A DNA stretch of 64,000 bases from Eledone cirrhosa. Lineage: Eukaryota. The notes under the pieces are model-generated. The model saw nothing but the letters and a program-made list of their open reading frames with translations, made no database searches and was not told the DNA's origin. The position numbers and the translations under genes were made by a program. The DNA is taken from the NCBI GenBank assembly GCA_964016885.1, contig OZ024740.1, positions 420,050,001 to 420,114,000 on the forward strand. The letters are read 5' to 3'. Shown here in pieces: positions 1 to 57,368 of the stretch; within the stretch, counting starts at the first letter, position 1; the number at the start of each line of letters is the position of its first letter.

Positions 1-3000
1 GTACATCTAGTCCTTATATCTGGATATGTAGATCTAGTCCTTATATCTGGATATGTAGAAGATCTAGTCCTTATATCTAGATATGTAGAAGATCTAGTCC
101 TTATATCTAGATATGTAGAAGATCTAGTCCTTATATCTAGATATGTAGATCTAGTCCTTATATCTAGATATGTAGATCTAGTCCTTATATCTGGATATGT
201 AGATCTAGTCCTTATATCTAGATATGTAGATCTAGTCCTTATATCTGGATATGTAGAAGGTCTAGTCCTTATATCTGGATATGTAGAACATCTAGTCCTT
301 ATATCTGGATATGTAGAACATCTAGTCCTTATATCTGGATATGTAGAAGATCTAGTCCTTATATCTAGATATGTAGATCTAGTCCTTATATCTAGATATG
401 TAGATCTAGTCCTTATATCTGGATATGTAGAAGATCTAGTCCTTATATCTAGATATGTAGATCTAGTCCTTATATCTAGATATGTAGATCTAGTCCTTAT
501 ATCTGGATATGTAGAAGATCTAGTCCTTATATCTGGATATGTAGAAGATCTAGTCCTTACATCTGGATATGTAGAAGATCTAGTCCTTATATCTAGATAT
601 GTAGATCTAGTCCTTATATCTAGATATGTAGATCTAGTCCTTATATCTGGATATGTAGAAGATCTAGTCCTTATATCTAGATATGTAGATCTAGTCCTTA
701 TATCTGGATATGTAGAAGATCTAGTCCTTATATCATGATATGTAGATCTAGTTCTTATATCTAGATATGTAGATCTAGTCCTTATATCTGGATATGTAGA
801 AGATCTAGTCCTTATATCTAGATATGTAGATCTAGTTCTTATATCTAGATATGCAGATCTAGTCCTTATATCTAGATATGTAGATCTAGTCCTTATATCT
901 AGATATGTAGATCTAGTCCTTATATCTAGATATGTAGATCTAGTCCTTATATCTAGATATGTAGATCTAGTTCTTATATCTAGATATGCAGATCTAGTCC
1001 TTATATCTAGATATGTAGATCTTGTCCTTATATCTAGATATGTAGATCTAGTCCTTATATCTGGATATGTAGAATATCTAGTCCTTATATCTGGATATGT
1101 AGAAGATCCAGTCCTTATATCTGGATATGTAGAAGATCTAGTCCTTATATCTGGATATGTAGAACATCTAGTCCTTATATCTGGATATGTAGAAGATCTA
1201 GTCCTTATATCTAGATATGTAGATCTAGTCCTTATATCTGGATATGTAGAGCATCTAGTCCTTATATCTGGATATGTAGAAGATCTAGTCCTTATATCTA
1301 GATATGTAGATCTAGTCCTTATATCTGGATATGTAGAAGATCTAGTCCTTATATCTAGATATTTAGATCTAGTCCTTATATCTTGATATGTAGAAGATCT
1401 AGTCCTTATATCTAGATATGTAGATCTAGTCCTTATATCTGGATATGTAGATCTAGTCCTTATATCTGGATATGTAGATCTAGTCCTTATACCTGGATAT
1501 GTAGATCTAGTCTTTATATCTAGATATGTAGATCTAGTCCTTATATCTGGATATGTAGAAGATCTAGTCCTTATATCTAGATATGTAGATCTAGTCCTTA
1601 TATCTGGATATGTAGAAGATCTAGTCCTTATATCTGGATATGTAGATCTAGTCCTTATATCTGGATATTTAGATCTAGTCCTTATATCTGGATATGTAGA
1701 AGATCTAGTCCTTATATCTGGATATGTAGAAGATCTAGTCCTTATATCTAGATATGTAGAAGATCTAGTCCTTATATCTAGATATGTAGATCTAGTCCTT
1801 ATATCTAGATATGTAGATCTAGTCCTTATATCTAGATATGTAGATCTAGTCCTTATATCTAGATATGTACATCTAGTCCTTATATCTGGATATGTAGATC
1901 TAGTCCTTATATCTGGATATGTAGAAGATCTAGTCCTTATATCTAGATATGTAGAAGATCTAGTCCTTATATCTAGATATGTAGAAGATCTAGTCCTTAT
2001 ATCTAGATATGTAGATCTAGTCCTTATATCTAGATATGTAGATCTAGTCCTTATATCTGGATATGTAGATCTAGTCCTTATATCTAGATATGTAGATCTA
2101 GTCCTTATATCTGGATATGTAGAAGGTCTAGTCCTTATATCTGGATATGTAGAACATCTAGTCCTTATATCTGGATATGTAGAACATCTAGTCCTTATAT
2201 CTGGATATGTAGAAGATCTAGTCCTTATATCTAGATATGTAGATCTAGTCCTTATATCTAGATATGTAGATCTAGTCCTTATATCTGGATATGTAGAAGA
2301 TCTAGTCCTTATATCTAGATATGTAGATCTAGTCCTTATATCTAGATATGTAGATCTAGTCCTTATATCTGGATATGTAGAAGATCTAGTCCTTATATCT
2401 GGATATGTAGAAGATCTAGTCCTTACATCTGGATATGTAGAAGATCTAGTCCTTATATCTAGATATGTAGATCTAGTCCTTATATCTAGATATGTAGATC
2501 TAGTCCTTATATCTGGATATGTAGAAGATCTAGTCCTTATATCTAGATATGTAGATCTAGTCCTTATATCTGGATATGTAGAAGATCTAGTCCTTATATC
2601 ATGATATGTAGATCTAGTTCTTATATCTAGATATGTAGATCTAGTCCTTATATCTGGATATGTAGAAGATCTAGTCCTTATATCTAGATATGTAGATCTA
2701 GTTCTTATATCTAGATATGCAGATCTAGTCCTTATATCTAGATATGTAGATCTAGTCCTTATATCTAGATATGTAGATCTAGTCCTTATATCTAGATATG
2801 TAGATCTAGTCCTTATATCTAGATATGTAGATCTAGTCCTTATATCTAGATATGTAGATCTAGTCCTTATATCTAGATATGTAGATCTAGTCCTTATATC
2901 TAGATATATAGATCTAGTCCTTATATCTAGATATGTAGACCTAGTCCTTATACCTGGATATGTAGAAGATCTAGTCCTTATATCATGATATGTAGATCTA

Positions 3001-6000
3001 GTTCTTATATCTAGATATGTAGATCTAGTCCTTATATCTGGATATGTAGAAGATCTAGTCCTTATATCTAGATATGTAGATCTAGTTCTTATATCTAGAT
3101 ATGCAGATCTAGTCCTTATATCTAGATATGTAGATCTAGTCCTTATATCTAGATATGTAGATCTAGTCCTTATATCTAGATATGTAGATCTAGTCCTTAT
3201 ATCTAGATATGTAGATCTAGTCCTTATATCTGGATATGTAGAAGATCTAGTCCTTATATCTGGATATGTAGAAGATCCAGTCCTTATATCTGGATATGTA
3301 GAAGATCTAGTCCTTATATCTGGATATGTAGAAGATCTAGTCCTTATATCTGGATATGTAGAAGATCTAGTCCTTATATCTAGATATGTAGATCTAGTCC
3401 TTATATCTAGATATGTAGATCTAGTCCTTATATCTAGATATGTAGATCTAGTCCTTATATCTGGATATGTAGAAGATCTAGTCCTTATATCTAGATATTT
3501 AGATCTAGTCCTTATATCTGGATATGTAGAAGATCTAGTCCTTATATCTAGATATGTAGATCTAGTCCTTATATCTGGATATGTAGATCTAGTCCTTATA
3601 TCTGGATATTTAGATCTAGTCCTTATATCTGGATATGTAGAAGATCTAGTCCTTATATCTGGATATGTAGAAGATCTAGTCCTTATATCTAGATATGTAG
3701 AAGATCTAGTCCTTATATCTGGATATGTAGATCTAGTCCTTATATCTGGATATGTAGATCTAGTCCTTATACCTGGATATGTAGATCTAGTCTTTATATC
3801 TAGATATGTAGATCTAGTCCTTATATCTAGATATGTAGAAGATCTAGTCCTTATATCTAGATATGTAGATCTAGTCCTTATATCTGGATATGTAGATCTA
3901 GTCCTTATATCTAGATATGTAGATCTAGTCCTTATATCTGGATATGTAGAAGATCTAGTCCTTATATCTGGATATGTAGAAGATCTAGTCCTTATATCTG
4001 GATATGTAGATCTACTCCTTATATCTAGATATGTAGATCTAGTCCTTATATCTAGATATGTAGATCTAGTCCTTATATCTGGATATGTAGATCTAGTCCT
4101 TATATCTAGATATGTAGATCTAGTCCTTATATCTGGATATGTAGAAGATCTAGTCCTTATATCTAGATATGTAGATCTAGTCCTTATATCTGGATATGTA
4201 GAAGATCTAGTCCTTATATCTGGATATGTAGAAGATCTAGTCCTTATATCTGGATATGTAGAACATCTAGTCCTTATATCTGGATATGTAGAACATCTAG
4301 TCCTTATATCTGGATATGTAGAAGATCTAGTCCTTATATCTAGATATGTAGATCTAGTCCTTATATCTAGATATGTAGATCTAGTCCTTATATCTAGATA
4401 TGTAGATCTAGTCCTTATATCTAGATATGTAGATCTAGTCCTTATATCTGGATATGTAGAAGATCTAGTCCTTATATCTAGATATGTAGATCTAGTCCTT
4501 ATATCTGGATATGTAGAAGATCTAGTCCTTATATCTGGATATGTAGAAGATCTAGTCCTTATATCTGGATATGTAGAACATCTAGTCCTTATATCTGGAT
4601 ATGTAGAACATCTAGTCCTTATATCTGGATATGTAGAAGATCTAGTCCTTATATCTAGATATGTAGATCTAGTCCTTATACCTGGATATGTAGAAGATCT
4701 AGTCCTTATATCTGGATATGTAGATCTAGTCCTTATATCTGGATATGTAGAAGATCTAGTCCTTATATCTAGATATGTAGAAGATCTAGTCCTTATATCT
4801 AGATATTTAGTTCTAGTCCTTATATCTGGATATGTAGATCTAGTCCTTATATCTGGATATGTAGAAGATCTAGTCCTTATATCTGGATATGTAGATCTAG
4901 TCCTTATATCTGGATATGTAGAAGATCTAGTCCTTATATCTGGATATGTAGATCTAGTCCTCATATCTGGATATGTAGATCTAGTCCTTATATCTAGATA
5001 TGTAGATATAGTCCTTATATCTGGATATGTAGAAGATCTAGTCCTTATATCTAGATATGTAGATCTAGTCCTTATATCTGGATATGTAGAAGATCTAGTC
5101 CTTATATCTGGATATGTAGATCTAGTCCTTATATCTGGATATGTAGATCTAGTCCTTATATCTAGATATGTAGATCTAGTCCTTATATCTGGATATGTAG
5201 ATCTAGTCCTTATATCTGGATATGTAGAAGATCTAGTCCTTATATCTGGATATGTAGATCTAGTCCTTATATCTGGATATGTAGAAGATCTCGTCCTTAT
5301 ATCTGGATATGTAGAAAATCTTGTCCTTATATCTGGATATGTAGATCTAGTCCTTATATCTAGATATGTAGATCTAGTCCTTATATCTAGATATGTAGAT
5401 CTAGTCCTTATATCTGGATATGTAGAAGATCTAGTCCTTATATCTGGATATGTAGAAGATCTAGTCCTTATATCTGGATATGTAGATCTAGTCCTTATAT
5501 CTAGATATGTAGATCTAGTCCTTATATCTGGATATGTAGAAGATCTAGTCCTTATATCTGGATATGTAGAAGATCTAGTCCTTATATCTGGATATGTAAA
5601 AGATCTAGTCCTTATATCTAGATATGTAGAAGATCTAGTCCTTATATCTAGATATGTAGATCTAGTCCTTATATCTAGATATGTACATCTAGTCCTTATA
5701 TCTAGATATGTAGAAGATCTAGTCCTTATATCTAGATATGTAGAAGATCTAGTCCTTATATCTAGATATGTAGAAGATCTAGTCCTTATATCTAGATATG
5801 TAGAAGATCTAGTCCTTATATCTAGATATGTAGATCTAGTCCTTATATCTAGATATGTAGATCTAGTCCTTATATCTAGATATGTAGAAGATCTAGTCCT
5901 TATATCTAGACATGTAGAAGATCTAGTCCTTATATCTAGATATGTAGAAGATCTAGTCTTTATATCTAGATATGTAGATCTAGTCCTTATATCTAGATAT

Positions 6001-6337
6001 GTAACAGATCTAGTCCTTATATCTAGATATGTAGATCTAGTCCTTATACCTGGATATGTAGATCTAGTCCTTATATCTGGATATGTAGATCTAGTCCTTA
6101 TACCTGGATATGTAGAAGATCTAGTCCTTATATCTGGATATGTAGATCCAGTCCTTATACCTGGATATGTAGAAGATCTAGTCCTTATACCTGGATATGT
6201 AGATCTAGTCCTTATATCTAGATATGTAGATCTAGTCCTTATACCTGGATATGTAGATCTAGTCCTTATATCTAGATATGTAGATCTAGTCCTTATACCT
6301 GAATATGTAGATCTAGTCCTTATACTTGGATATGTAG
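1..6337. repeat. Tandem satellite of mixed 27/30-bp units GATCTAGTCCTTATATCTRGATATGTA(GAA), >200 copies, continuing beyond the window start
   Basis: Directly visible periodicity; the last unit runs in frame into RTE reverse-transcriptase sequence. Confidence 0.98.
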
Positions 6338-7548: not shown

Positions 7549-7803
7549 TTGTGTGTGTGACAGCTCACACCTATGCAGGTTTAGCTGGCCTCCTCCAAGG
7601 TATATCTCGTTGGAGGTGTCTTGGGTGATTTTAATGATAGGGGCCCCAGTCTTATCATCTCATTTCTACAGCTGAGTAAACTGGAGCAACGTGAAATAAA
7701 GTGTCTTGCTCAAGGAAACAACACATCACCCAGTCCGAGAATTGAACTCACAACCTTTTGATTGCAAGCCCAATGCTCTAACCACTAGGCCATGTGCCTT
7801 CAC
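7549..7803 (-). mobile_element. tRNA-derived SINE with (CA)n tail
   Basis: Pol III A/B boxes on the minus strand; 11-bp TSD AAAGTAAAAAT (7538-7548 and 7804-7814); near-identical + strand copy at 50406-50683. Confidence 0.9.
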
Positions 7804-10618: not shown

Positions 10619-10695
10619 CCCTCAAGCAAGTGTTTCGGCTCTTAATAAATAATAAAAATAATATTTGCATATTATTATAACTCATCTCATGGAAA

Positions 10696-13606
10696 AGAAT
10701 TCTTGTATTCTCCAGTTCTTCCTTGGGTAAAGAATTCTTCTATTCTCCAGTTCTTCCTTGGGTAAAGAATTCTTCTATTCTCCAGTTCTTCCTTGGGTAA
10801 AGAATTCTTCTATTCTCCAATTCTTCCTTGGGTAAAGAATTCTTCTATTCTCCAATTCTTCCTTGGGTAAGGAATTCTTCTATTCTCCAATTCTTCCTTG
10901 GGTAAGGAATTCTTCTATTCTCCAATTCTTCCTTGGGTAAAGAATTCTTCAATTCTCCAGTTGTTCCTTGGGTAAAGAATTCTTCTATTCTCCAGTTCTT
11001 CCTTGGGTAAAGAATTCTTCTATTCTCCAGTTCTTCCTTGGGTAAAGAATTCTTCTATTCTCCAATTCTTCCTTGGGTAAAGAATTCTTCTATTCTCCAA
11101 TTCTTCCTTGGGTAAAGAATTCTTCTATTCTCCAGTTCTTCCTTGGGTAAAGAATTCTTCTATTCTCCAATTCTTCCTTGGGTAAGGAATTCTTCTATTC
11201 TCCAATTCTTCCTTGGGTAAAGAATTCTTCAATTCTCCAGTTCTTCCTTGGGTAAAGAATTCTTGTTTTCTCCAGTTCTTCCTTGGGTAAAGAATTCTTC
11301 TATTCTCCAATTCTTCCTTGGGTAAAGAATTCTTCTATTCTCCAATTCTTCCTTGGGTAAAGAATTCTTCTATTCTCCAGTTCTTCCTTGGGTAAAGAAT
11401 TCTTCTATTCTTCAATTCTTCCTTGGGTAAAGAATTCTTCTATTCTCCAATTCTTCCTTGGGTAAAGAATTCTTCTATTCTCCAGTTCTTCCTTGGGTAA
11501 AGAATTCTTCTATTCTCCAGTTCTTCCTTGGGTAAGGAATTCTTCTATTCTCCAATTCTTCCTTGGGTAAAGAATTCTTCTATTCTCCAGTTCTTCCTTG
11601 GGTAAAGAATTCTGCTATTCTCCAACTCTTCCTTGGGTAAAGAATTCTTCTATTCTCCAATTCTTCCTTGGGTAAGGAATTCTTCTATTCTCCAATTCTT
11701 CCTTGGGTAAAGAATTCTTCTATTCTCCAATTCTTCCTTGGGTAAGGAATTCTTCTATTCTCCAATTCTTCCTTGGGTAAAGAATTCTTCTATTCTCCAA
11801 TTCTTCCTTGGGTAAAGAATTCTTCTATTCTCCAGTTCTTCCTTGGGTAAAGAATTCTTCTATTCTCCAGTTCTTCCTTGGGTAAAGAATTCTTCTATTC
11901 TCCAGTTCTTCCTTGGGTAAAGAATTCTTCTATTCTCCAATTCTTCCTTGGGTAAAGAATTCTTCAATTCTCCAGTTCTTCCTTGGGTAAGGAATTCTTC
12001 TATTCTCCAATTCTTCCTTGGGTAAAGAATTCTTCAATTCTCCAGTTCTTCCTTGGGTAAAGAATTCTTGTATTCTCCAGTTCTTCCTTGGGTAAAGAAT
12101 TCTTCAATTCTCCAGTTCTTCCTTGGGTAAAGAATTCTTGTATTCTCCAGTTCTTCCTTGGGTAAAGAATTCTTCTATTCTCCAATTCTTCCTTGGGTAA
12201 AGAATTCTTCTATTCTCCAGTTCTTCCTTGGGTAAAGAATTCTTCTATTCTCCAGTTCTTCCTTGGGTAAAGAATTCTTCTATTCTCCAGTTCTTCCTTG
12301 GGTAAAGAATTCTTGTATTCTCCAGTTCTTCCTTGGGTAAAGAATTCTTCTATTCTCCAGTTCTTCCTTGGGTAAAGAATTCTTCTATTCTCCAATTCTT
12401 CCTTGGGTAAAGAATTCTTCTATTCTCCAATTCTTCCTTGGGTAAAGAATTCTTCTATTCTCCAGTTCTTCCTTGGGTAAAGAATTCTTCTATTCTCCAG
12501 TTCTTCCTTGGGTAAAGAATTCTTCTATTCTCCAGTTCTTCCTTGGGTAAATAATTCTTCTATTCTCCAATTCTTCCTTGGGTAAAGAATTCTTCTATTC
12601 TCCAATTCTTCCTTGGGTAAGGAATTCTTCTATTCTCCAATTCTTCCTTGGGTAAAGAATTCTTCTATTCTTCAATTCTTCCTTGGGTAAGGAATCCTTC
12701 TATTCTCCAATTCTTCCTTGGGTAAAGAATTTTTCTATTCTCCAATTCTTCCTTGGGTAAGGAATTCTTCTATTCTCCAATTCTTCCTTGGGTAAGGAAT
12801 TCTTCTATTCTCCAATTCTTCCTTGGGTAAAGAATTCTTCTATTCTCCAATTCTTCCTTGGGTAAAGAATTCTTCTATTCTCCAATTCTTCCTTGGGTAA
12901 AGAATTCTTCAATTCTCCAATTCTTCCTTGGGTAAGGAATTCTTTTATTCTCCAATTCTTCCTTGGGTAAAGAATTCTTCTATTCTCCAGTTCTTCCTTG
13001 GGTAAAGAATTCTTCTATTCTCCAATTCTTCCTTGGGTAAAGAATTCTTCTATTCTCCAGTTCTTCCTTGGGTAAAGAATTCTTCTATTCTCCAGTTCTT
13101 CCTTGGGTAAAGAATTCTTCTATTCTCCAATTCTTCCTTGGGTAAAGAATTCTTCTATTCTCCAATTCTTCCTTGGGTAAGGAATTCTTCTATTCTCCAA
13201 TTCTTCCTTGGGTAAAGAATTCTTCTATTCTCCAATTCTTCCTTGGGTAAGGAATTCTTCTATTCTTCAATTCTTCCTTGGGTAAAGAATTCTTCTATTC
13301 TCCAATTCTTCCTTGGGTAAGGAATTCTTCTATTCTCCAATTCTTCCTTGGGTAAGGAATTCTTCTATTCTCCAATTCTTCCTTGGGTAAGGAATTCTTT
13401 TATTCTCCAATTCTTCCTTGGGTAAAGAATTCTTCAATTCTCCAGTTCTTCCTTGGGTAAGGAATTCTTCTATTCTCCAATTCTTCCTTGGGTAAAGAAT
13501 TCTTCAATTCTCCAGTTCTTCCTTGGGTAAAGAATTCTTCTATTCTCCAATTCTTCCTTGGGTAAAGAATTCTTCTATTCTCCAGTTCTTCCTTGGGTAA
13601 GGAATC
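10696..13606. repeat. 35-bp satellite AAGAATTCTTCTATTCTCCARTTCTTCCTTGGGTA, about 83 copies
   Basis: Strict 35-bp period with an EcoRI site in nearly every unit. Confidence 0.98.
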
Positions 13607-14337: not shown

Positions 14338-15226
14338 ATCATCATTGTTTAATCATCATCGTTTAATGTCCATTTTCCATGCTAGCATGAGTAGGACTGG
14401 CTGTCCTGTTGTGAGAGATCCAGGTTAGATGACTGTCTTGTTCACACAGAACTGATTTCAGCTTTGTTTTCTATGGCTAGATGCCCTTCTTAACGCCAAC
14501 CACATTTACAGTGTGTGCTGGGTGATTTTTGTCGTGACACCTACACGACCACTTTACAGTATGGACTGGGTGATTTTTGTCGTGACACTTACATGACCAC
14601 TTTACAGTGTGTGCTGGGTGATTTTTGTTGTGACACCTACTCGACCACTTTACAGTGTGTGCTGGGTGATTTTTGTTGTGACACCTACATGACCACTTTA
14701 CAGTGTGGCCTGGGTGATTTTTATTGTGACACCTACTCGACCACTTTACAGTGTGGACTGGGTGATTTTTGTTGTGACATCTACATGACCACTTTACAGT
14801 GTGGACTGGGTGATTTTTGTTGTGACACCAACATGACCACTTTACAGTATGAACTGGGTGCTTTTTATTGTGACACCTACATGACCACTTTACAGTGTGG
14901 ACTGGGTGCTTTTTGTTGTGACACCTACATGACCACTTTACAGTGTGGACTGGGTGATTTTTGTTGTGACACCTACATGACCACTTTACAGTGTGGACTG
15001 GGTGCTTTTTGTTGTGTCTTTTACACAACCACTTTACAGTGTGAGCAGGCACTTTTTGTTGTGTCACCCACACTATCACTTTACAGTGTGGAAAGCATGC
15101 TTTTACAGTGTGGAAAGGATGCTTTTACAGTGTGAACTGGGTGCTTTTTGTCGTGACACCTACATGACCACTTTACAGTGTGGACAGGATACTTTTTTGT
15201 TGTGATACCAACATAACTTAACAGTG
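14338..15226 (-). mobile_element. RTE 3' UTR/tail fragment with expanded 48-bp internal repeat (about 14 copies)
   Basis: (CAT)n tail, CCATGCTAGCATG, GATGCCCTTC motif, then ACCACTTTACAGTGTGGACTGGGTG... units. Confidence 0.85.
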
Positions 15227-16396: not shown

Positions 16397-17177
16397 TTAA
16401 GGAAAGTTCTTACATAAAATTATATTGGAAGGGTTTTAGATAAATATATATATATATATATACTTTAAAATAAACAGCTTCGTGTTGTAGAACTAGAGGT
16501 GATATCAAGACATTTTAAAAGTCTTTGATATTGTGTGAGTGTTGTTAATAGAATAAAATTGTAAAGACAGAGTTGGGTAATCTCTCACAGAGTTGAATCA
16601 ACAAAACATATTTTGATTCCTAGTTCTAGTTGTTCCACTTCATTTATATTACTGATATCTTTCACAACAGCATGAATGTTACGCTATCCCACGTCCACTT
16701 TTGCCTTATTAAGAAATAAATATTTAATCCTTACATGTAAGTATGAAACCTGAGACATTTAGTCATTGAAAAATGGGGAGATTGAGAAGTTCACAACTTT
16801 CTAAAATGTGTTAGAATTCAGTCTCTTTCTGGGAATGAGGTAGACTTAATCCAATTTTAATACTACCACTTGGCTGTTGAGTGCTATTGGCAGAGCCTAG
16901 ATTGTTGCAAGGATCCAGGCCAGATCTCAGATTTAAATATAACGCCTATCAGTCTTGGAGGCCTAAAAAAGGGATCATAATTGGTGACATTCCTCATCTG
17001 AAAAAAGAAAAGCATCAATTACAGATTTGTTTGCTGTTTGCCTATTCCTAAATCTACAATGTTTTGTGAAAAATGTTTAAGAATATTGTCTGCAAAATCT
17101 AAATACTTTAGTATTGTTAATACAAAACATTGTGAGATATGTAATAAATGACTGATAAGTTTCAGAAACCCAGTACA

Positions 17178-17572
17178 TCATCATCATCATCACCGTTTTA
17201 CGTCCGTTCTTCCATGCTAGCATGGGTTAGATGGGTTGTCCTGTTGCGGGCAGTGTCCAGTCGGCTGACCTTGTCTTGCTCATATGGGAACTGATTCTGG
17301 CTTGATTTCTACAGCTGGATGCCTTTCCTAACACCAACCTCATTTACAGTGTGGGCTGGGTGCTTTTTTGCCGTGGCACCTCCACGACCACTTTGCAGTG
17401 GAATGATAGGGACCCCAGTCCTATCATCTCATTTCTACAGCTCTGTAAACTGAAGCAATGTGAAATAAAGTGTCTTGCTCAATGAAACAACACATCACCC
17501 GGTCTGAGAATCGAACTCACAACCTTTTGATTGCAAGCCCAATGCTCTAACCACTAAGCCATGTGCCTTCAC
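17178..17572 (-). mobile_element. Chimeric SINE: tRNA/core head fused to an RTE 3' tail
   Basis: Head matches the SINE at 7549-7803 up to GGGGTCCCTATCATT, then switches to the RTE 3' UTR seen at 35110-35374; GTACA flanks both sides. Confidence 0.75.
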
Positions 17573-18069
17573 TGTACAATGTGGTAGAAATATATAAACG
17601 ACAAATGATGACAAATAAAACAAATCAAAGTAATGTTTTACATAGTATATTTCAACATGATATTTCAGAGCTTTTACCCTTTTCTCAAATGTGAAATGAA
17701 AATGGTTCTAGACAAAACGAACAATGTGTTCTTCTCTAACTGGTTTACATGTCTAAAATATGTGTGTAGCCATTATAGTAGCCAATAGTGGCCATGCATT
17801 TCATTTTTTTTAAACTCTTAATATTACATACCACATGAGCAGAACAATGTTGAAATGTACAAAACAGCACTATGATTGCAGCTCATTAAAAATTGGGGTC
17901 ATTACTTTAATACTACAAATTTTCACATTGGTCTGTACTTTAGTAAAGAAAAATACTATAAACATTTGAATTAACAAACTTGTTTTTAAGTCTTTTCTAC
18001 CAAATCATGACAGGATGTTAAAAGTTAAACCAGTTCTTTGGAGTTGGTTTTATCTATATTCCACTAATC

Positions 18070-18125
<56 letters not shown>

Positions 18126-18192
18126 AAGGTTTAGCAAATAATGAAAAAGTTTCAAAATAAATTTTAAAAAATTGACTTTACCTACTATAGTT

Positions 18193-18276
18193 ACCTTTAC
18201 TGATCGGTTTCGAATCCCAAAAATAAAACGGAGACCATACGGCCTTCGTTGCAAAGAAAGATTCTCGTCAGAAGGT
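18193..18276 (-). ncRNA. Type I hammerhead ribozyme, copy 1 (one stem III mismatch)
   Basis: Reverse complement reads ACCTT-CTGACGA-GAATC...GATTC-GAAA-CCGATCAG-TA-AAGGT. Confidence 0.75.
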
Positions 18277-18674
18277 TCTTTTCATTCAAAGAATATAAAA
18301 TTCCTGAATTTAAATCACAGACTAGCGCTATCAAAACTGTTCCCGGGATGAGAGTGGATGATGTAGAAACAGGTTTATCAAGGGCCGAAGCAAAGATAGA
18401 GGCAAAAGGAGGTAGGTCAAACCAGCCACGGCTATCGCTAGCAGCAGTCAGAACGACCAAATTTGTTCTCAACATTAGTGGAGGTAGTAGTAATAGGATA
18501 TGTGTTCCATCACGCACAAGGCGCTAGGTACGCATGTATTGTCCAACCAAATGCCAATGTGGTTCAATGGCGGGTTAATAAATTAACGAGCCAGAACAAA
18601 TATAAAAAAGGTTTAGCAAATAATGAAAAAGTTTCAAAATAAATTTTAAAAAATTGACTTTACCTACTATAGTT

Positions 18675-18758
18675 ACCTTTACCGATCGGTTTCGAATCCC
18701 AAAAATAAAACGGAGACCATACGGCCTTCGTTGCAAAGAAAGATTCTCGTCAGAAGGT
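18675..18758 (-). ncRNA. Type I hammerhead ribozyme, copy 2
   Basis: Exact reverse complement of 19154-19237; 482 bp from copy 1. Confidence 0.85.
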
Positions 18759-19153
18759 TCTTTTCATTCAAAGAATATAAAATTCCTGAATTTAAATCAC
18801 AGACTAGCGCTATCAAAACTGTTCCCGGGATGAGAGTGGCTCGTTAATTTATTAACCCGCCATTGAACCACACTGGCATTTAGTTGGACAATACATGCGT
18901 ACCTAGCACCTTGTGCGTGAAGGAACACATATCCTATTACTACTACCTCCACTAATGTTGAGAACAAATTTGGTCGTTCTGACTGCTGCTAGCGATAGCC
19001 GTGGCTGGTTTGACCTACCTCCTTTTGCCTCTATCTTTGCTTCGGCCCTTGATAAACCTGTTTCTACATCATCCACTCTCATCCCGGGAACAGTTTTGAT
19101 AGCGCTAGTCTGTGATTTAAATTCAGGAATTTTATATTCTTTGAATGAAAAGA

Positions 19154-19237
19154 ACCTTCTGACGAGAATCTTTCTTTGCAACGAAGGCCGTATGGTCTCC
19201 GTTTTATTTTTGGGATTCGAAACCGATCGGTAAAGGT
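19154..19237 (+). ncRNA. Type I hammerhead ribozyme, copy 3 (predicted cleavage after 19232)
   Basis: Stem I ACCTT/AAGGT; core CTGACGA 19159-19165; stem II GAATCTT/GGGATTC with a long apical hairpin; GAAA 19219-19222; palindromic stem III CCGATCGG; GUA cleavage triplet. Confidence 0.85.
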
Positions 19238-19422
19238 AACTATAGTAGGTAAAGTCAATTTTTTAAAATTTATTTTGAAACTTTTTCATTATTTGCTAAA
19301 CCTTGTTTATATTTGTTCTGGCTCGTTAATTTATTAACCCGCCATTGAACCACACTGGCATTTGGTTGGACAATACATGCGTACCTAGCGCCTTGTGCGT
19401 GAAGGAACACATATCCTATTAC

Positions 19423-19453
<31 letters not shown>

Positions 19454-20428
19454 TATATCGTTCTCAATTTATTGTGCAAAACTTCTGAAATGTTTAATGT
19501 AAATAATGTCAGGCATAAAAAGCAGTTTAAAACAGAAAACAAACAAAAAGTTCTTTTAAATGTAATCAGTCACCTGGCAGGTGATAAGTTCCTGATTCCA
19601 ATCTTGCCAGTAAGCCTGTAGCTGTTTGTTGTTTCCAACTGATGTTTACAGTATCAAATTTCATTTAAAGGTAAAATTTGACATTAAAATTTAATCAATT
19701 TAAGATGTTCCTCTCAGTGAATCACCTGACTTATTCTATAGATTTTGTTCTATTATATTCCTAAATTTTTGTTGTGTCCCATGGACAAAATGGCGAAAGC
19801 ACTGCTGTGGAGAACAAACAGCCAGCATTGCTCACTGTCTAAGCCACTCCACCTCATAGAGCTCCTTCCTCAGTCACGATATATCCCTCCTAATTTCTCA
19901 GAGGAAAATGACAGTTTGGAGACTGACAACACCAGCAGTCTTGACCACAACCAGTAAGAAAAGGAAGTGGTCAGTCAAGTCCCAGTATTTGGATATCTGA
20001 CTGTTTCTATGGCAATTCTTTCACCATTTTCTCCACGGGGTGCAGCTGAGATATCCTGCCTAGACTGGGGTGTAGAGTTTGTTGCTGCCCTCCTTCCCAT
20101 TCTTCTTACTTTTATTATTTTATTTAATAGATTGGCGGAATCAGTAGAGCATCAGACAATATGCTTTGCACCATAGAGTTATGGCCCTTTACGTTCTGAG
20201 TTCAAATCCTGCCAAGGTTAGCTTTAGATAGATAAACTAAAGTACCGGTAATGCACTGGGGTCAATTTAATCGACTTTCTCCTCCTCCAAAATTGCTGGC
20301 CTTGTGCCTAAATCAGAAACCATTATTTAATTTTTCTATTTCAAAAAAATATTTTTTGTTGCAAACTTTATACAATTTAATTGAAATTTGTTAAATAGAG
20401 ATTTTCACTTGTATTTTTGTTGTAACAG

Positions 20429-20563: not shown

Positions 20564-21529
20564 GTAAGTTTCTTTTTATATATTCTTATTTATATCATCA
20601 TCATCATCATCATCATTTTACATTGATTTTCTATGCTAGCATGGATTAGATGGGTTGTCCTGTTTGAGGTAAGTCGGGTTAGGTGACTTGCTCATACAGG
20701 TCTGTTTCTGAGTTGGTTTCTACAGCTGGATGCCATTTCTAACATCAAACACACTTACTGTGTAAACTGGGTGCTTTTTGTCATGACACCAATATGACCA
20801 CTTTACAGAGTGGGTTGGGTGCTTTTTGTTGTAACATACACCTACATGACCACATTACAGTGTAGACTGGGTTATGTATTTATATTAATTTATTTCATGT
20901 TGCTCCAGTTCACTCAGGTGTAGAAATGTGTTACAACATCACTGGTGCCAAGTTGTATCAGCCATTGCCTTTCCCTTGGACAACATTGGTGGCATGGAGA
21001 GAGAAGAGCGGCATCATGGCGACTGCTGGTTTTCCACAAACAACCTTTCCCGGGTTTGTGCTTCAGAGGGGAGCTTTCTAGGTGTAAAACCCAGGTCATT
21101 CATGACTGAAGGAGGTCTTTACCCTTTACTCATGTGAATTTACACAATATACATCATGGAGTTTGCTTGGACTTGTGTCTTAGAGGGGAAATTTCTAGGT
21201 TCACAACCCGTGGTGATTCATGACCAAAGGAGGTCTTTACCCTTTTTATATGTATTAAATAAGAAACTCTTAATCCAAAGATTTGAAGCTCACAAATAAG
21301 ATATTTGAAGGGTGGGTACCGTTTGGTTTGACAGGAATCAGGAGTACAGGTTGGCATTAGTTAAATCAAATGTTTATAGTAGCTTTACTACTGGACATAT
21401 TGTGTTAAAATGTTGGATTATTAGAGTAAATACTTTGTCTGATATCTGATTAATGTTTCAGCAAATATAGAAAGTTTGGTTTAGGGTGTTTGTTGAGTTT
21501 TTGTGGTTTGATTGGAGCAAGTCTTATTT

Positions 21530-22605
21530 ACTTAAGAACATAGATTTTACATGTGGGCGGTGCTCTGGTGCAATAAGTAGCAGCAAGTGCCCACAAAATA
21601 CTAGCTCTTACAACTGCGCAGAGGCCTCTATAGAAATAGTGGACAGCTTCCGTTACCTGGGTGACAAAATCAGCAGTGGGGGAGGGTCCTCTGAAAGTAC
21701 AGTAGCTAGAGTCAGAACTGGATGGAAAAAGTTCAGAGAGCTTATACCACTATTAGCCGCTAAAGGGTTCTCCCTAAAATTGAAAGGCAGGTTGTATGAT
21801 GCCTGCATACGAACAGCAATGTTGCATGGCAGTGAGACCTGGGCATTGTGTGCAGAGGATATACGCAGACTAGAGAGGAACGAAGCTTGCATGCTCCGCT
21901 GGATGTGTAATAGTAATATACGTGAACGGCAAAGCATAAACGAACTAAGGAAAAAATTAGAAATAAGAGGGATCAGATGTTGTTTACTCGAGAGAAGGCT
22001 ACGTTGGTATGGACACGTGATGCGCATGAAAGTCGATAGCTGTATAACAAAGTGCAGGGCAATAAAGATAGACGGTAGCCACGGAATAGGCAGACCTAGA
22101 AAAACCTGGGACGAGCTGATAAACTCCGACCTCACACACTTACACCTCTCCAAGACAATGTCACTGGACCGAGACCTTTGGCGGTACTCAGTAATAGAGA
22201 AGACCCGCCTTACCTAAATACATAGTAAAACCTACTACAGCCAGTAGGCATCTCTAACAAAATACACCCCCGTCCCACCACCCCCACCCCATCCACACCA
22301 CCCCCTCCTATGTAAAGTTATGTTGGTGCCGCGCCATCCAGGCCGAAACAAATGAGATCGTGTAGGTGTCACGACAAAAAAACACACAGTCCACGCTGTA
22401 ATGTGGCCGTGTAGGTAACACGGTAAAAACCTCCCAGACCCACACTGTAAATGTGGTTGGTGTTAGGAAGGGCATCCAACTGTAGAAAACCTGCCAGACA
22501 GTCCTATGCGAGCAAGACAATCACTCTTGCCTCAAGTTGGAATACCCCCGTCCAAACCCATGCAAGCGTGGAACACGGACGTTAAACGTTGATGATGATG
22601 ATGAT
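21530..22605 (+). mobile_element. 5'-truncated RTE LINE (open ORF2 C-terminus, 3' UTR, (GAT)n tail)
   Basis: ORF 21486-22217 contains FRYLGD, MLHGSETW, RRLRWYGHVMR and GRPRKTW motifs; tail GGACGTTAAACG(TGA)n. Confidence 0.92.
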
Positions 22606-29134: not shown

Positions 29135-29522
29135 TTGCAATTTGTGAACAAAACCAATCATTGGTTTCCAAGTCACTGGTTCACTTTATTTCTGATAGCA
29201 ACAATGACAAGAGAATATCTGTAACTCAGTCATCATCGTCATCGTCATCACCATCACCATCACCGTCATCATCATCATCATCATAAACACCACCACCACC
29301 ATCATCATCATCATCATTGTTTTACTTTTATTGAGAGATGCAGAAGACCCAGCTTCCCTGATGCATGGCTTGAAGCATACATCTAGTATGCACCACTTTC
29401 CTCTACCCCCCTTTCATACACTTCCCACCTCTTGACAATCCATCCTTACACCCAGCCCCACCCTAGACCTACCTTTCCAATCCCCACACTACAAACATGC
29501 TTCTCCACCACCCCAGCTTCCA

Positions 29523-31255
29523 ATCCACACTGTAAAGTGGTCAGTTTGGTGCCACAACAAAAAGCACCCAGTGCACACTGTAAAGTGGTCGGTTTGGTGC
29601 CACAACAAAAAGCACCCAGCCCACACTGTAAAGTGGTCGGTTTGGTGCTACAACAAAAAGTACCCAGTCTACACTGTAAAGTGGACGTGTTGGTGTCATG
29701 ACAAAAAGTACCCAGTCTACACTGTAAAGTGGCCGTGTTGGTGTCATGACAAAAAGTACCCAGTCTACGCTGTAAAGTGGACGTGTTGGTGTCATGACAA
29801 AAAGTACCCAGTCTACACTGTAAAGTGGCCGTGTTGGTGTCATGACAAAAAGTACCTAGTCTACAATATAAAGTGGACGTGTTGGTGTCATGACAAAAAG
29901 TACCCAGTCTACACTGTAAAGTGGCCGTGTTGGTGTCATGACAAAAAGTACCCAGTCTACGCTGTAAAGTGGACGTGTTGGTGTCTTGACAAAAAGTACC
30001 CAGTCTACACTGTAAAGTGGCCGTGTTGGTATCATGACAAAAAGTACCTAGTCTACAATATAAAGTGGACGTGTTGGTGTCATGACAAAAAGTACCTTGT
30101 CTACACTGTAAAGTGGACGTGTTGGTGTCATGACAAAAAGTACCCAGTCAACAATGTAAAGTGGTCATGTTGGTGTCATGACAAAAAGTACCCAGTCTAC
30201 ACTGTAAAGTGGACGTGTTGGTGTCATGACAAAAAGTACCCAGTCAACAATGTAAAGTGGTCATGTTGGTGTCATGACAAAAAGTACCCAGTCTACACTG
30301 TAAAGTGGACGTGTTGGTGTCATGACAAAAAGTACCCAGTCAACAATGTAAAGTGGTCATGTTGGTGTCATGACAAAAAGTACCCAGTCTACACTGTAAA
30401 GTGGACGTGTTGGTGTCATGACAAAAAGTACCTTGTCTACACTGTAAAGTGGACGTGTTGGTGTCATGACAAAAAGTACCTAGTCTACACTGTAAAGTGG
30501 ACGTGTTGGTGTCATGACAAAAAGTACCCAGTCAACAATGTAAAGTGGTCATGTTGGTGTCATGACAAAAAGTACCCAGTCTACACTGTAAAGTGGCCGT
30601 GTTGGTGTCATGACAAAAAGTACCCAGTCTACACTGTAAAGTGGCCGTGTTGGTGTCATGACAAAAAGTACCTAGTCTACAATGTAAAGTGGACGTGTTG
30701 GTGTCATGACAAAAAGTACCTTGTCTACACTGTAAAGTGGACGTGTTGGTGTCATGACAAAAAATACCTAGTCTACAATGTAAAGTGGACGTGTTGGTGT
30801 CATGACAAAAAGTACCCAGTCAACAATGTAAAGTGGTCATGTTGGTGTCATGACAAAAAACGGCCACTCCACACTGTAAAGTGGACATGTTGGTGTCATG
30901 ACAAAGAGCACCCATTCCCCACTGTAAAGTGGTCATGTTGGTTCTATTATAAAAAGCACCCATCCCCCACTGTAAAGTGGTCATTTTAGTACCATGACAA
31001 AAAGGATCCAGTCCACACATGCTGGTCCCATGATAAAAAGCACCCAATCCACATTGTAAATGGGGTTGGCATTAGGAAGGGCATCCAGCTGTAGAAACCA
31101 AGCCCAAAACAGTTCTTTATGAGTAAGACATGGTCATCTGATCTGACTTGTCTTACAATAGGACAACTCATCTAACCTATGCTAGCATAGAAAAATGGAC
31201 GATAAATGGTGATGATGATGATGATGATGATGATTGTGGTGATGATGATGATGAT
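29523..31255 (+). repeat. 48-bp minisatellite (about 30 copies) expanded inside an RTE 3' UTR, followed by the RTE tail
   Basis: ACACTGTAAAGTGGACGTGTTGGTGTCATGACAAAAAGTACCCAGTCT units, then AGGAAGGGCATCCAGCTGTAGAAAC and (GAT)n. Confidence 0.95.
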
Positions 31256-40441: not shown

Positions 40442-40783
40442 CAACACTGTCAGTTAAACATGGAATTCTGTTGAGCTGTAGGTTCAAGAAGTAGAAATAG
40501 AAGATGTTTCTTGGTTTCTACTTTGAACTTACTGAGAAAAATAAGTTAGCAACAAGGTAATTACTATGTTAGGATTGAGAATAAAAGTACATTCTTCAAA
40601 GAAGAGAAATCAGCTGAAGATTATATGGAAGAAATCTATGTTTACATAAAGCTTCTGAAGTTATATCGTTAGTTTAATGAAGTATTTTGAGTTGATAATG
40701 TTATTGTAACTAGCATTGATTGAACAATAAAGACATTTTATACTGCTGGCTCAGGAAATAAGTTTCTAGCAATGTGTTTAGGA

Positions 40784-40868
40784 AACTAACTTAATACATT
40801 CCTCCATATATATATATATGTATATATATAGTTGTGTATAATGGTAGCTATGGTGCTTCCATAGGCGG

Positions 40869-40906
<38 letters not shown>

Positions 40907-41046
40907 TAAATAGATATATATATACATACATACACAACCCTTGCTAGCAGGGAAAGCGGACATTAAATGATGATATATATACATATATATAAGCATTTAT
41001 ATAATATATATATATATAGTTATGTATGTATCTCTCTCTCACTCTT

Positions 41047-41094
<48 letters not shown>

Positions 41095-41179
41095 CCGCCT
41101 ATGGAAGCACCATAGCTACCATTATACACAACTATATATATACATATATATATATATGGGGGAATGTATTAAGTTAGTT
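40784..41179. repeat. Local inverted repeat (arms about 125-145 bp) within TA/GA microsatellite
   Basis: AACTAACTTAATACATTCC...GGTGCTTCCATAGGCGG is mirrored by CCGCCTATGGAAGCACC...GGAATGTATTAAGTTAGTT. Confidence 0.9.
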
Positions 41180-42398
41180 ATGCAAACAGGAAAAAGCGGA
41201 CGTAAAATGATGATGATGATATATATATATATATAGAGAGAGAGAGGGGTACATATGTATATATGCATATGGGTGTGTATGCATGTATATATTATATATA
41301 TATACACACACCCATATGCATAGATACATATGTATCTATCTCTTTCTCTCTATATATATATTACAAATTAGCTAATATATATGCTGTCACTAATGTAATC
41401 CTCTACTTTTCTGATCGTTATCTAAAATCCCCCCTTCTAAAGTTTGAAGCTTACATCAATTCCTGCAGCTCCCTTACATCTATTATCAATTCTGCTATAA
41501 CTCAGATTCTAAAGACCTCCAGCTAAGAATTTCATATATTTCTGAAATTCAATATTGTTATCACATTATTCAGGCTATGATTTCATTGTATTCATAAACA
41601 CACATTCAGCTTCTGTATTAGTTTGTAAATATACTTCACAAACATACCTACACAATATCTCCCTTGAAGAAAGAACAAAACAATTAAATTACGAAGACAA
41701 CACCAGTCCTGCTTAAAAGAAACTGGATTTCATCTTTGCTTTTAGCTAAATTTCATTTTAACAATCATTTTACCCAGTTTTTCTATCATAGTGATGCCAC
41801 GAATTTCCTGGTTTTTTAATCATCATCATCATCATCACTGTTTAATGTCCATTTTTCCATGTTAGCATGGGGTAGACGAGTTGTCCCATTTCAGAAAAGT
41901 CAGATCAGGTGACCATGTCTTGCTCATACAGAACTGTTTCTGGCTTGGTTTCTATGGCTGGATGCCCGTCCTAATGCCAACCACATTTGCAGTGTGGATT
42001 GGGTGTTTTTTATTGTGGCACCAAAATGGCCAACTGACAGGTTTGAGTGGATGATTTTTATCATGGCACCAAAACGACCACTTTACAGTGTGAACAGGGA
42101 GCTTTTGGTCATGGCACCAAAACCACTTTACAGTGTACGCAGGGTGCTTTTTATCATGCCACCAAAACCACTTTACAGTGTTGGCTGGGTCAGGGGGGAA
42201 GGAAACTAAAAAGATTGGCATCAGGAAAGGTATCTGGTTGTAAAGAAATGTTTCAAAACATCCTTTCCAACCCATGCCAACATGGATGTGGACATAGAAA
42301 CAACAATGATGACGATATATGGTGTGCTATAAACAAAGATTGATAAAATAAGTAGAGGAGTTAATATGATTGACTATAAACCGCTGAAAGTATTTGAA

Positions 42399-44131: not shown

Positions 44132-47010
44132 ATTTAGGACAAATGAGGCCCTGTCTAGCCTCATAACAACCCATCTAATTTAGGACAAATGAGGCCCTAT
44201 CTAGCCTCATAACAACCCATCTAATTTAGGACAAATGAGGCCCTATCTAGCCTCATAACAACCCATCTAATTTAGGACAAATGATGCCCTATCTAGCCTC
44301 ATAACAACCCATCTAATTTAGGACAAATGATGCCCTATCTAGCCTCATAACAACCCATCTAATTTAGGACAAATGAGGCCCTGTCTAGCCTCATAACAAC
44401 CCATCTAATTTAGGACAAATGAGGCCCTATCTAGCCTCATAACAACCCATCTAATTTAGGACAAATGAGGCCCTATCTAGCCTCATAACAACCCATCTAA
44501 TTTAGGACAAATGATGCCTTATCTAGCCTCATGACAACCCATCTAATTTAGGACAAATGAGGCCCTATCTAGCCTCATAACAACCCATCTAATTTAGGAC
44601 AAATGAGGCCCTATCTAGCCTCATAACAACCCATCTAATTTAGGACAAATGATGCCCTATCTAGCCTCATAACAACCCATCTAATTTAGGACAAATGATG
44701 CCCTATCTAGCCTCATAACAACCCATCTAATTTAGGACAAATGAGGCCCTGTCTAGCCTCATAACAACCCATCTAATTTAGGACAAATGAGGCCCTATCT
44801 AGCCTCATAACAACCCATCTAATTTAGGACAAATGAGGCCCTATCTAGCCTCATAACAACCCATCTAATTTAGGACAAATGATGCCCTATCTAGCCTCAT
44901 AACAACCCATCTAATTTAGGACAAATGAGGCCCTATCTAGCCTCATAACAACCCATCTAATTTAGGACAAATGAGGCCCTATCTAGCCTCATAACAACCC
45001 ATCTAATTTAGGACAAATGAGGCCCTGTCTAGCCTCATAACAACCCATCTAATTTAGGACAAATGATGCCCTATCTAGCCTCATAACCCATCTAATTTAG
45101 GACAAATGAGGCTCTGTCTAGCCTCATAACACCCCATCTAATTTAGGACAAATGAGGCCCTGTCTAGCCTCATAACAACCCATCTAATTTAGGACAAATG
45201 AGGCCCTATCTAGCCTCATAACAACCCATCTAATTTAGGACAAATGATGCCCTATCTAGCCTCATAACAACCCATCTAATTTAGGACAAATGAGGCTCTG
45301 TCTAGCCTCATAACAACCCATCTAATTTAGGACAAATGAGGCCCTATCTAGCCTCATAACAACCCATCTAATTTAGGACAAATGAGGCCCTATCTAGCCT
45401 CATAACAACCCATCTAATTTAGGACAAATGAGGCCCTATCTAGCCTCATAACAACCCATCTAATTTAGGACAAATGAGGCCCTGTCTAGCCTCATAACAA
45501 CCCATCTAATTTAGGACAAATTATGCCCTATCTAGCCTCATAACAACCCATCTAATTTAGGACAAATGAGGCTCTGTCTAGCCTCATAACAACCCATCTA
45601 ATTTAGGACAAATGAGGCCCTGTCTAGCCTCATAACAACCCATCTAATTTAGGACAAATGAGGCCCTATCTAGCCTCATAACAACCCATCTAATTTAGGA
45701 CAAATGATGCCCTATCTAGCCTCATAACAACCCATCTAATTTAGGACAAATGATGCCCTATCTAGCCTCATAACAACCCATCTAATTTAGGACAAATGAG
45801 GCCCTGTCTAGCCTCATAACAACCCATCTAATTTAGGACAAATGAGGCCCTATGTAGCCTCATAACAACCCATCTAATTTAGGACAAATGAGGCCCTATC
45901 TAGCCTCATGACAACCCATCTAATTTAGGACAAATGAGGCCCTATCTAGCCTCATAACAACCCATCTAATTTAGGACAAATGAGGCCCTATCTAGCCTCA
46001 TAACAACCCATCTAATTTAGGACAAATGATGCCCTGTCTAGCCTCATGACAACCGATCTAATTTAGGACAAATGAGGCCCTGTCTAGTCTTATGACATAA
46101 CAACCCATCTAATTTAGGACAAATGAGGCTCTGTCTAGCCTCATAACAACCCATCTGATTTAGGACAAATGAGGCCCTGTCTAGCCTCATAACAACCCAT
46201 CTAATTTAGGACAAATGAGGCCCTATCTAGCCTCATAACAACCCATCTAATTTAGGACAAATGATGCCCTGTCTAGCCTCATGACAACCCATCTAATTTA
46301 GGACAAATGAGGCCCTATCTAGCCTCATAACAACCCATCTAATTTAGGACAAATGATGCCCTGTCTAGCCTCATGACAACCCATCTAATTTAGGACAAAT
46401 GAGGCCCTGTCTAGTCTTATGACATAACAACCCATCTGATTTAGGACAAATGAGGCCCTGTCTAGTCTTATGACATCACAACCCATCTAATTTAGGACAA
46501 ATGAGGCTCTGTCTAGCCTCATAACAACCCATCTAATTTAGGACAAATGATGCCCTATCTAGCCTCATAACAACCCATCTAATTTAGGACAAATGAGGCC
46601 CTATCTAGCCTCATAACAACCCATCTAATTTAGGACAAATGATGCCCTGTCTAGCCTCATGACAACCCATCTAATTTAGGACAAATGAGGCCCTATCTAG
46701 CCTCATAACAACCCATCTAATTTAGGACAAATGATGCCCTGTCTAGCCTCATGACAACCCATCTAATTTAGGACAAATGAGGCCCTGTCTAGTCTTATGA
46801 CATAACAACCCATCTGATTTAGGACAAATGAGGCCCTGTCTAGTCTTATGACATCACAACCCATCTAATTTAGGACAAATGAGGCCCTGTCTAGCCTCAT
46901 AACAACCCATCTGATTTAGGACAAATGAGGCCCTGTCTAGCCTCATAACAACCCATCTAATTTAGGACAAATGAGGCCCTGTCTAGCCTCATAACAACCC
47001 ATCTGATTTA
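44132..47010. repeat. 46-bp satellite ATTTAGGACAAATGAGGCCCTATCTAGCCTCATAACAACCCATCTA, about 62 copies
   Basis: Direct reading; the array ends in an RTE-type tail. Confidence 0.98.
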
Positions 47011-50405: not shown

Positions 50406-50647
50406 GTGAAGGCTCATAGCTTAGTGGTTAGAGCATTGGGCTTGCAATCGACAGGTTGTGAGTTCAATTCTCGGACCGGGTGATGTGTTCTTTCGTTGAG
50501 CAAGACACTTTATTTTACGTTGCTCCAGTTTACTCAACTGTAGAAATGAGATGATAGGACTGGGGTCCCTATCATTAAATCACCCAAGAGACCTCCAACG
50601 AGATATACCTTGGAGGAGGCCAGCTAAACCTGCATAGGTGTGAGCTG

Positions 50648-52296: not shown

Positions 52297-53136
52297 ATCA
52301 TCATCATCATCATCATCACCGTTTTACGTCCGTTCTTCCACGCTAGCATGGGTTAGACGGGTTGTCCTGTTGTGGGCAGTGTCTGGTCGGCTGACCATGC
52401 CTTGCTCATACAGGAACTGATCCGGCTTGATTTCTACAGCTGGATGCCCTTCCTAACACCAACCTCATTTACAGTGAGTGCTGGGTGCTTTTTCGTGGCG
52501 CCTACACGTCCACTTTACAGTGTGGGCTGGGTGCTTTTTTGCCGTGGCACCTCCACGACCACCTTGCGGTGGGGGGGGGGGGGGCATATTGTTTATATGC
52601 TTCAGCATGTACCCATGGGAGGTCGGGTACCCTGTATTACTGCGTGACGCCAGAAGTCACGGTCGTGTGTCATTGACTTTGAGAGGTGTAGTTGGGTAAG
52701 GTCGGCTTTTATCACCTCATCCCAAGTCATCTTGGGTCTCCCCACTCCGCGGTTTCCATCAACTTCTAGTGCTCTGCACCTTTTTATGCAGCTGTCATCC
52801 TTCATACGCATCACATGTCCATACCAGCGTAACCGCCTCTCCTGCACGCAGCATTTGATTCCTCTTATGCTCAGTCTCTCTCTCAATTCCTTTATGCTTT
52901 GTCGTTCACGTATATTACTGTTACACATCCATCGGAGCATGCAGGCTTCGTTTCTCTCTAATCTACGTAAGTCTTCCACCTTCAGCGCCCAGGTCTCACT
53001 ACCATGCAACATCGCTGTTCGGATACACGCATCATACAGTCTGCCTTTCATTCTGAGGGAGAAGCCTTTTGCAGCTAGCAGTGGTAGTAGTTCCCTAAAC
53101 TTCTTCCATCCCGTTCTTACCCTAGTTATTGTACTT
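52297..53136 (-). mobile_element. 5'-truncated RTE LINE with open ORF2 C-terminus, inserted in the 11-bp array
   Basis: RVRTGWKKFRELLPLL...MLHGSETW...RRLRWYGHVMR...GRPKMTW; highly similar to 34580-35374. Confidence 0.93.
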
Positions 53137-57017: not shown

Positions 57018-57368
57018 AAAGGATCGATCGACTTTTGTCAAATCGGTCACAACTCCAGGTAGAAGGAGCAACGTGAAATAAAGTGTCTTGCTCAAGGACA
57101 TAACGCATCGCCTGGTCCAAGAATCGAACTCACAACCTCAAGATTGTGAATCCAATTCTCTAACCACTCAGCCACACGCCTTCACAGTGATATACAGCAT
57201 ATATACAATGGAATTCCGTTATAACAAAATTCACGGAGAATGAAAAAAAATTTGTTGTAACAAAAAATTCTTTATAACGAGATCGACCTAACACACGTGT
57301 GGTCGGGGATTGAAAAAATGTTATACTGAAAAAAATGTTATAATGGTATTCGTTATAACAAAATGTTA

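Follow-up and report, generated by a model that had tools for sequence, protein, structure and literature searches.

The 64-kb window (the whole stretch of DNA that was analysed) contains an insert of about 1.3 kb, which consists entirely of a 482-bp unit and is bounded by the microsatellites (CT)10(TA)17 and (TA)12A(TA)5. The unit is present as two partial tandem arms in opposite orientations. The locus raises the question of how such a structure is made: on which template, from how many primers and by which enzyme. An earlier note on this DNA held that the arrangement implies a circular template, with priming from two sides of a (TA)n target.

Structure of the insert and its target

Positions within the unit are numbered U1 to U482, with U1 at window position 18837. 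The left target is a microsatellite composed of (CT)10 (18070-18089) and (TA)17 (18089-18122), the last five nucleotides of which (18118-18122) are common with the 3' end of the left arm. The left arm (18118-18839, minus strand) is 722 nt or 1.5 units long and comprises U237-482 (pass C) followed by U1-476 (pass D). The right arm (18837-19424, plus strand) is 588 nt or 1.2 units long and comprises U1-482 (pass A) followed by U1-106 (pass B). The lengths of 719 and 586 given previously are these values minus the microhomology bases, and each arm is longer than one monomer, as had been claimed. The two arms meet 5' to 5' at the TGG at 18837-18839, and the earlier assignment of these bases to both arms (U237-239 of the left, U1-3 of the right) is correct. 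Among the 482x482 possible breakpoint pairs, 2.3% share three or more bases. This is the only inversion joint in the insert, and it is not a palindrome, the inverted arms being 243 nt apart.

Both 3' ends run into (TA)n, as the earlier note had stated. At the left end, the microhomology with the tract is TATAT (5 nt), which is tied best among the 482 unit positions. At the right end, it is TA (2 nt, 19423-19424), which is equalled or bettered at 75 of the 482 positions. The right target tract (19423-19458) consists of (TA)12 at 19423-19446 and A(TA)5 ending at 19457. The two 3' ends, U476 and U106, are 112 nt apart on the unit.

The unit and its hammerhead

A descriptor search for type I hammerheads gives three matches in the 64-kb window, every one of them inside the insert; the same descriptor matches 1 of 5000 shuffled units. 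The hammerhead of pass C (18675-18758, minus strand) is intact. That of pass D (18193-18276, minus strand) carries a G to A change at 18201, which weakens helix III. In pass A (19154-19237, plus strand) the GUA cut is predicted after 19232, between U396 and U397, and none of the arm ends lies within 79 nt of this point. The hammerhead is built of a 5-bp helix I, CUGACGA, a 7-bp helix II with a long extension, GAAA, and a short helix III contained in a perfect 10-nt palindrome. The palindrome is calculated to self-pair at -16.6 kcal/mol, as would be expected of a dimer-type hammerhead; the change at 18201 reduces this to -4.8 kcal/mol in pass D. The active fold is 2.1 kcal/mol less stable than the minimum-energy fold. 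Rfam gives no hammerhead match in 17500-20000 (E up to 1) or in the window at gathering scores, so the hammerhead is assigned by the descriptor. The pestivirus and microRNA rows returned by Rfam for 17500-20000 are below threshold, lie on the TA tract or the flank, and were discarded.

The unconstrained fold of 19145-19250 is not better than that of shuffles (z -0.19), and a circular fold of the unit does not exceed shuffles in stability (z -0.6 for the plus and -1.4 for the minus strand). A viroid-like rod is unsupported because both folds match the shuffles. A 26-nt hairpin of -6.6 kcal/mol occupies U1-26 (18837-18862, plus strand), and the 5' end of the right arm falls exactly at its base. 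The pseudo-LTRs of rotifer Penelope elements carry 5' palindromes (PMC3846280), with which this hairpin may be compared.

The unit is non-coding. Its longest stop-free frames are 108 and 119 aa, and the four unit frames scanned match no Pfam family. The insert has no long frame and contains no autonomous Penelope-like ORF with a telomerase-like RT and a GIY-YIG endonuclease. The search of the 64-kb window for further copies of the unit found none, and neither this search nor the Pfam scan of the four frames revealed a partner element. The 21-nt hammerhead pattern has no match in viral_contigs; its lone match in metagenome_contigs (L001) has only 22 nt in common with the unit and was rejected as chance.

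The repeat family

One unit together with the right flank was compared with four sets of sequencing records, the contigs of runs X1, X4 and X5 and the reads of run X9. These are four of eleven candidate runs, none of them recorded as RNA; X6-X8 contributed small shares and were left out. X1 may be the sample underlying the assembly. Matches are found in 841 of 16.3 million contigs of X1, 33 of 0.76 million of X4 and 3 of 8.3 million of X5, and in 1893 of the 12.5 million reads of X9. The depth is piled on the unit, except for two short repeat patches in the right flank; the summed depth is not a copy number, and contigs of a high-copy repeat prove presence only. The unique sequence of the right flank has a depth of 8 in X1 and is present there with 0 differences over 532 nt. 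Of the 841 X1 contigs, 466 agree with the reference at under 95%.

In organism B, a contig of 513 nt consists of the unit joined end to end with itself (482+31): 73 letters lie outside the alignment, the number expected for closure. One contig of organism B leaves the unit near U58 and enters a short TA run. Each complete unit carries, by the descriptor, a type I hammerhead with the full catalytic core; the tandem period of 482 bp is a few hundred bp and has no LTRs, and the family is multi-copy. Because it is a tandem, non-coding, hammerhead-bearing repeat family common to two species, the unit is by its sequence, and by definition, a non-LTR retrozyme of a new family, circular RNA and self-cleavage aside.

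In X1, the depth falls away 5' of U476, resembling 5' truncation of copies with one fixed end; in X4 and X5 it is roughly flat. Loose ends of X9 reads at 19127, 19128, 19260, 19267 and 19328 are at AATT sites with an agreement of 0.35-0.38 and were set aside as library cut sites. An opposite-strand joint in X9 (18943/19180; 3 reads, 2 starts) is located at the reference edge; it may represent a further inverted copy or a chimera of the library, and was set aside. The inversion joint of the insert is absent from the 8 joints listed for the records placed on the unit and right flank, and none of these records crosses the tract as an empty allele.

A preferred 3' end site

U476 ends a TATAT run and is one of the two best (TA)-like sites of the unit. 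Exits from U476 into (AT)n are present in at least 5 contigs of X1 and at least 105 reads of X9, among the loose ends listed (21 of 205), which lie outside the simple-repeat stretch at the right junction. The 105 reads, in which the median loose part is 104 of 150 nt, appear to begin at one AATT site 45 nt upstream. Owing to this single start they may stem from very few loci, possibly from this insert itself, and the contigs of X1 are therefore the firmer count. The left 3' end is not random, because it is at the best (TA)n-pairing site and recurs in other records. This is contrary to the random circular permutation predicted by the earlier note, which had also named fixed ends of other copies as an observation that would speak against its account. 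Such fixation is found at the left end, where U476 recurs, and thus only in part; neither of the other observations that it named, single-unit length and an assembly artefact, was demonstrated.

Two alleles common in the family lie close to this site: T>A at 19306 (U470) in 164 of 288 X9 reads and T>A at 19313 (U477) in 128 of 184. Either change would make the TA-like stretch at this end longer.

Source and register of the two arms

Only 6 sites distinguish the four passes from one another (0.4-1.9% in pairwise comparison). Between passes D and A there are 5 differences in 476 sites, and the two arms are 99% alike. Two alleles found in C, D and A alike are uncommon in X9, where the other letter is found in 196 of 233 reads at U250 and in 161 of 205 at U274. 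The small number of differing sites and the rare alleles common to C, D and A indicate one source for the passes.

The left arm ends (U476) 6 nt before the right arm starts (U483, which is U1), and together the arms correspond to a continuous template of 1316 nt, about 2.7 units, from which 6 nt are lost. The microhomology blurs the gap to 6-14 nt. The arms are in the twin-priming register of one template about 2.7 units long; this is suggestive, because the register was noticed after the fact and its chance is 3-12%, depending on the interval allowed. The single source is better supported than the 6-nt register. The earlier note had placed the arm ends at different permutation points. The points are indeed different, but they are not independent, as the left 3' end and the right 5' end are 6 nt apart.

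In twin priming of L1, a downstream primer and a second, internal primer are used, and the resulting cDNAs are joined by microhomology (PMC2912911, PMC2837659). The insert has this layout: the arm ends adjoin on the template except for the 6-nt gap, with microhomologies of 5 nt and 3 nt.

The insert probably originated in one retrotransposition event of the hammerhead-bearing 482-nt retrozyme, by twin priming on one template and with a Penelope-like RT/GIY-YIG protein acting in trans. Such a protein is most likely the enzyme; the enzyme, the order of events and the topology of the template are what we infer. Nicks would be made in both strands of the (CT)n(TA)n tract. The 3' end of the bottom strand would prime at U106, and 588 nt would be copied. 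The 3' end of the top strand would pair with the best UAUAU site, at U476, directly ahead of the first RT, which would halt 6 nt short of U476. A second RT would copy 722 nt, and the cDNA ends would then pair via TGG/CCA, followed by repair. Against this explanation are the reliance on one locus and the homology at the right end, which is only 2 nt.

Circular or linear template

The statement that the layout implies a circular template is too strong, because a contiguous template of 1316 nt is available from a linear multimer or from a circle. An uncut linear multimer gives the identical layout equally well, and a circular template is allowed by the layout, not implied. Each arm is longer than one unit, and between them they run across three hammerhead sites left uncut. 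A linear multimer that remained uncut and spanned at least 2.7 units is slightly favoured over a monomer circle, with somewhat less than an even chance of being the template; the three hammerhead sites would have to stay uncut. The purified Poseidon protein, the sole Penelope-like protein tested in vitro, uses mainly unprocessed RNA as its substrate (PMC11167929).

A monomer circle is a tentative and rather unlikely template. Both RTs would roll round it, making 1.2 and 1.5 turns and displacing the earlier cDNA. The 6-nt register would arise here too, since after one turn the sole free RNA is just ahead of the first RT, and both arms would be longer than one unit and extend across three intact cut sites. 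The private changes are even over the passes (1, 3, 2 and 0; chi-square p 0.84), which fits a circle because a circle predicts passes that are identical at insertion; however, a homogeneous tandem source yields the same even pattern. Pass D has T at U37, the major allele of the family (299 of 428 X9 reads), whereas passes A and B carry C. This split hints at a mixed multimer, but weakly: the probability that one of the 6 differing sites coincides with one of the 40 most variable positions (of the listed variants) is 0.41. The other five differing sites are absent among the variants listed (40 of 120).

Published findings bear on the circle in both directions. Circular molecules are reported to be the predominant form of retrozyme RNA and have been proposed as RT templates (PMC7229834), and hammerheads with a short palindromic helix III, which cut as dimers, are believed to stay uncut in a monomer circle (PMC4209133). 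On the other hand, metazoan Penelope-type hammerheads cut poorly in vitro (PMC4209133), and 8 of 9 Xenopus dimers failed to cut (bioRxiv 10.64898/2026.07.22.740005). The circle requires long strand displacement, which is undescribed for these RTs in the accessible parts of the literature compared, and the circular fold is no more stable than that of shuffles (z -0.6). It is doubtful that a Penelope-like enzyme, starting on each of the two strands of a single cut (TA)n site, rolled around a circle of monomeric retrozyme RNA, and equally doubtful that the second primer anneals solely in the displacement gap ahead of the first RT. If true, the rolling-circle reading would connect circular ribozyme RNAs with a specific mode of integration and would be a general account of the Penelope-like tandem-plus-inverted layout.

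Other origins of the inversion

Two RNAs of one source locus could have been primed separately, or a cDNA could have folded back and switched templates. Both would leave the 6-nt register as a coincidence at the 3-12% level, and together they are improbable. Separate priming of two templates has been proposed for L1 (PMC2837659), and a Penelope-like protein for which a dimer has been modelled uses identical start sites when it extends the two strands (PMC11167929). Self-priming has been proposed for the inversions of Penelope (PMC3846280), and the TGG could pair with CCA at 18591-18593; U476 would be a preferred start in any case. A simple fold-back is expected to place the left flank after U476, but the right arm runs U477-U106 instead, and the joint has no palindrome, with 243 nt between the arms.

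Rearrangement of DNA is considerably less probable still. Opposite copies in one (TA)n tract could have been joined by a microhomology-mediated deletion, or an older tandem copy could have undergone an inversion. A (TA)n tract accepts either orientation and inverted repeats are unstable, which is general knowledge and is compatible with such an origin. The arms, however, are 99% alike and have rare alleles in common, and an inversion within a tandem copy is expected to leave a second joint, while only one is present. Microhomology deletions are common in Penelope copies (PMC3846280).

An artefact of assembly or library, such as a chimeric fold-back read, has hardly any probability left: inverted repeats beside microsatellites are hard to assemble and no record bridges the inversion joint among the joints listed, but a fold-back chimera copies the arm exactly, whereas D and A have 5 mismatches in 476 sites, the right arm continues into the unit and not into the left flank with 243 nt between the inverted arms, the unique right flank is matched in X1 without differences over 532 nt, and the layout agrees with described biology (PMC8557442).

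Comparison with known systems

Metazoan retrozymes are reported as non-autonomous Penelope derivatives with lengths of 51-972 bp (bioRxiv 10.64898/2026.07.22.740005). The present unit, which falls within this range, resembles metazoan non-LTR retrozymes (PMC7229834; bioRxiv 10.64898/2026.07.22.740005) in being a non-coding tandem unit with one type I hammerhead each, a short palindromic helix III and membership in a repeat family. It differs from them in that the insert consists of two inverted partial tandems instead of a simple array and in that helix II is long. Insertion junctions and targets of retrozymes are undescribed in the accessible parts of PMC7229834 and bioRxiv 10.64898/2026.07.22.740005. 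No title or abstract opening dealing with such junctions was found in the mainly open-access literature searched, and within the same scope no literature joining retrozymes with twin priming was found.

In Penelope-like elements, a partial tandem lying next to an inverted copy truncated at its 5' end has been described, as have (TA)n targets (PMC8557442; also PMC3846280), and the partial-tandem plus inverted layout claimed by the earlier note matches these descriptions. In vitro, a Penelope-like protein cuts and extends both strands, and its RT starts internally (PMC11167929). In Schistosoma, pairs of hammerheads are found on opposite strands 100-700 bp apart (PMC4209133). The insert resembles EN+ Penelope-like elements (Penelope/Poseidon, Neptune, Naiad) in its partial tandem, inverted 5'-truncated copy and head-to-head joint, its (TA)n or AT-rich target, its internal RT start, and its 7-bp helix II and 5-bp helix I. 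Unlike these elements, it has no RT or GIY-YIG frame, its 3' ends are 112 nt apart compared with a tail of 30-40 bp, its joint has no palindrome or overlap, and there is no extra base before helix II. The insert behaves as a Penelope-type insertion; it is not an autonomous Penelope-like element, because RT and endonuclease are absent.

With L1 twin priming (PMC2912911, PMC2837659) the insert shares a 5'-inverted arm, a small internal deletion of the template, and microhomology both where the internal primer anneals and where the inversion is joined. Unlike L1 inserts, it lacks a poly(A) tail, and any target-site duplication would be hidden in the (TA)n; its template is tandem or circular, and both primers are internal, on TA-containing sites.

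Two-sided priming in (TA)n and the Penelope-like layout, both proposed by the earlier note, are supported by the geometry, the single-source alleles and the published work. The formation of the tandem and inverted structures of Penelope is called undefined in PMC8557442, and the animal retrozyme-Penelope link has so far consisted of co-occurrence and pseudo-LTR similarity (bioRxiv 10.64898/2026.07.22.740005, PMC7229834). The Penelope junction signature is found here on a non-coding ribozyme repeat, a footprint that links retrozymes with the Penelope machinery. The layout fits retrozymes borrowing Penelope enzymes; it does not thereby prove a circular RNA template. The component parts are already known, and what is new is a countable register and a family in which the number and topology of templates can be counted. 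One locus settles neither question. In other copies of the family, the distribution of gaps bears on one versus two templates, and pass alleles that match a source array bear on a circle versus a linear multimer.

Surrounding sequence

A tRNA-derived short repeat at 17402-17572, with copies at 7633-7803 and 50406-50576 that are 92-94% alike, is likely a SINE. It contains an Rfam tRNA match (17504-17561, minus strand, 31.7 bits). Another short element, headed by (CAT)n, is abundant and lies at 17176-17400, at 20590-20990 and in at least 10 other places; its 46-52-bp core expands to tandem arrays, for example at 14499-15214 and 29520-31018. We take the repeats flanking the insert to resemble octopod short elements.

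Minisatellite arrays with periods of 27, 35, 46 and 11/22 bp occupy 1-6337, 10694-13605, 44132-47010 and 53136-57018, and most long stop-free frames of the window fall inside the large arrays. A stop-free frame of 248 aa at 21471-22217 lies outside them and has no Pfam match.

At 40775-41188, two inverted arms of 140 nt (91% alike), which contain (TA)n(GA)n, are separated by 134 nt. This pair is MITE-like or a fold-back and is unrelated to the hammerhead unit. A second inverted pair, of 69 nt, lies beside it at 41223-41361.
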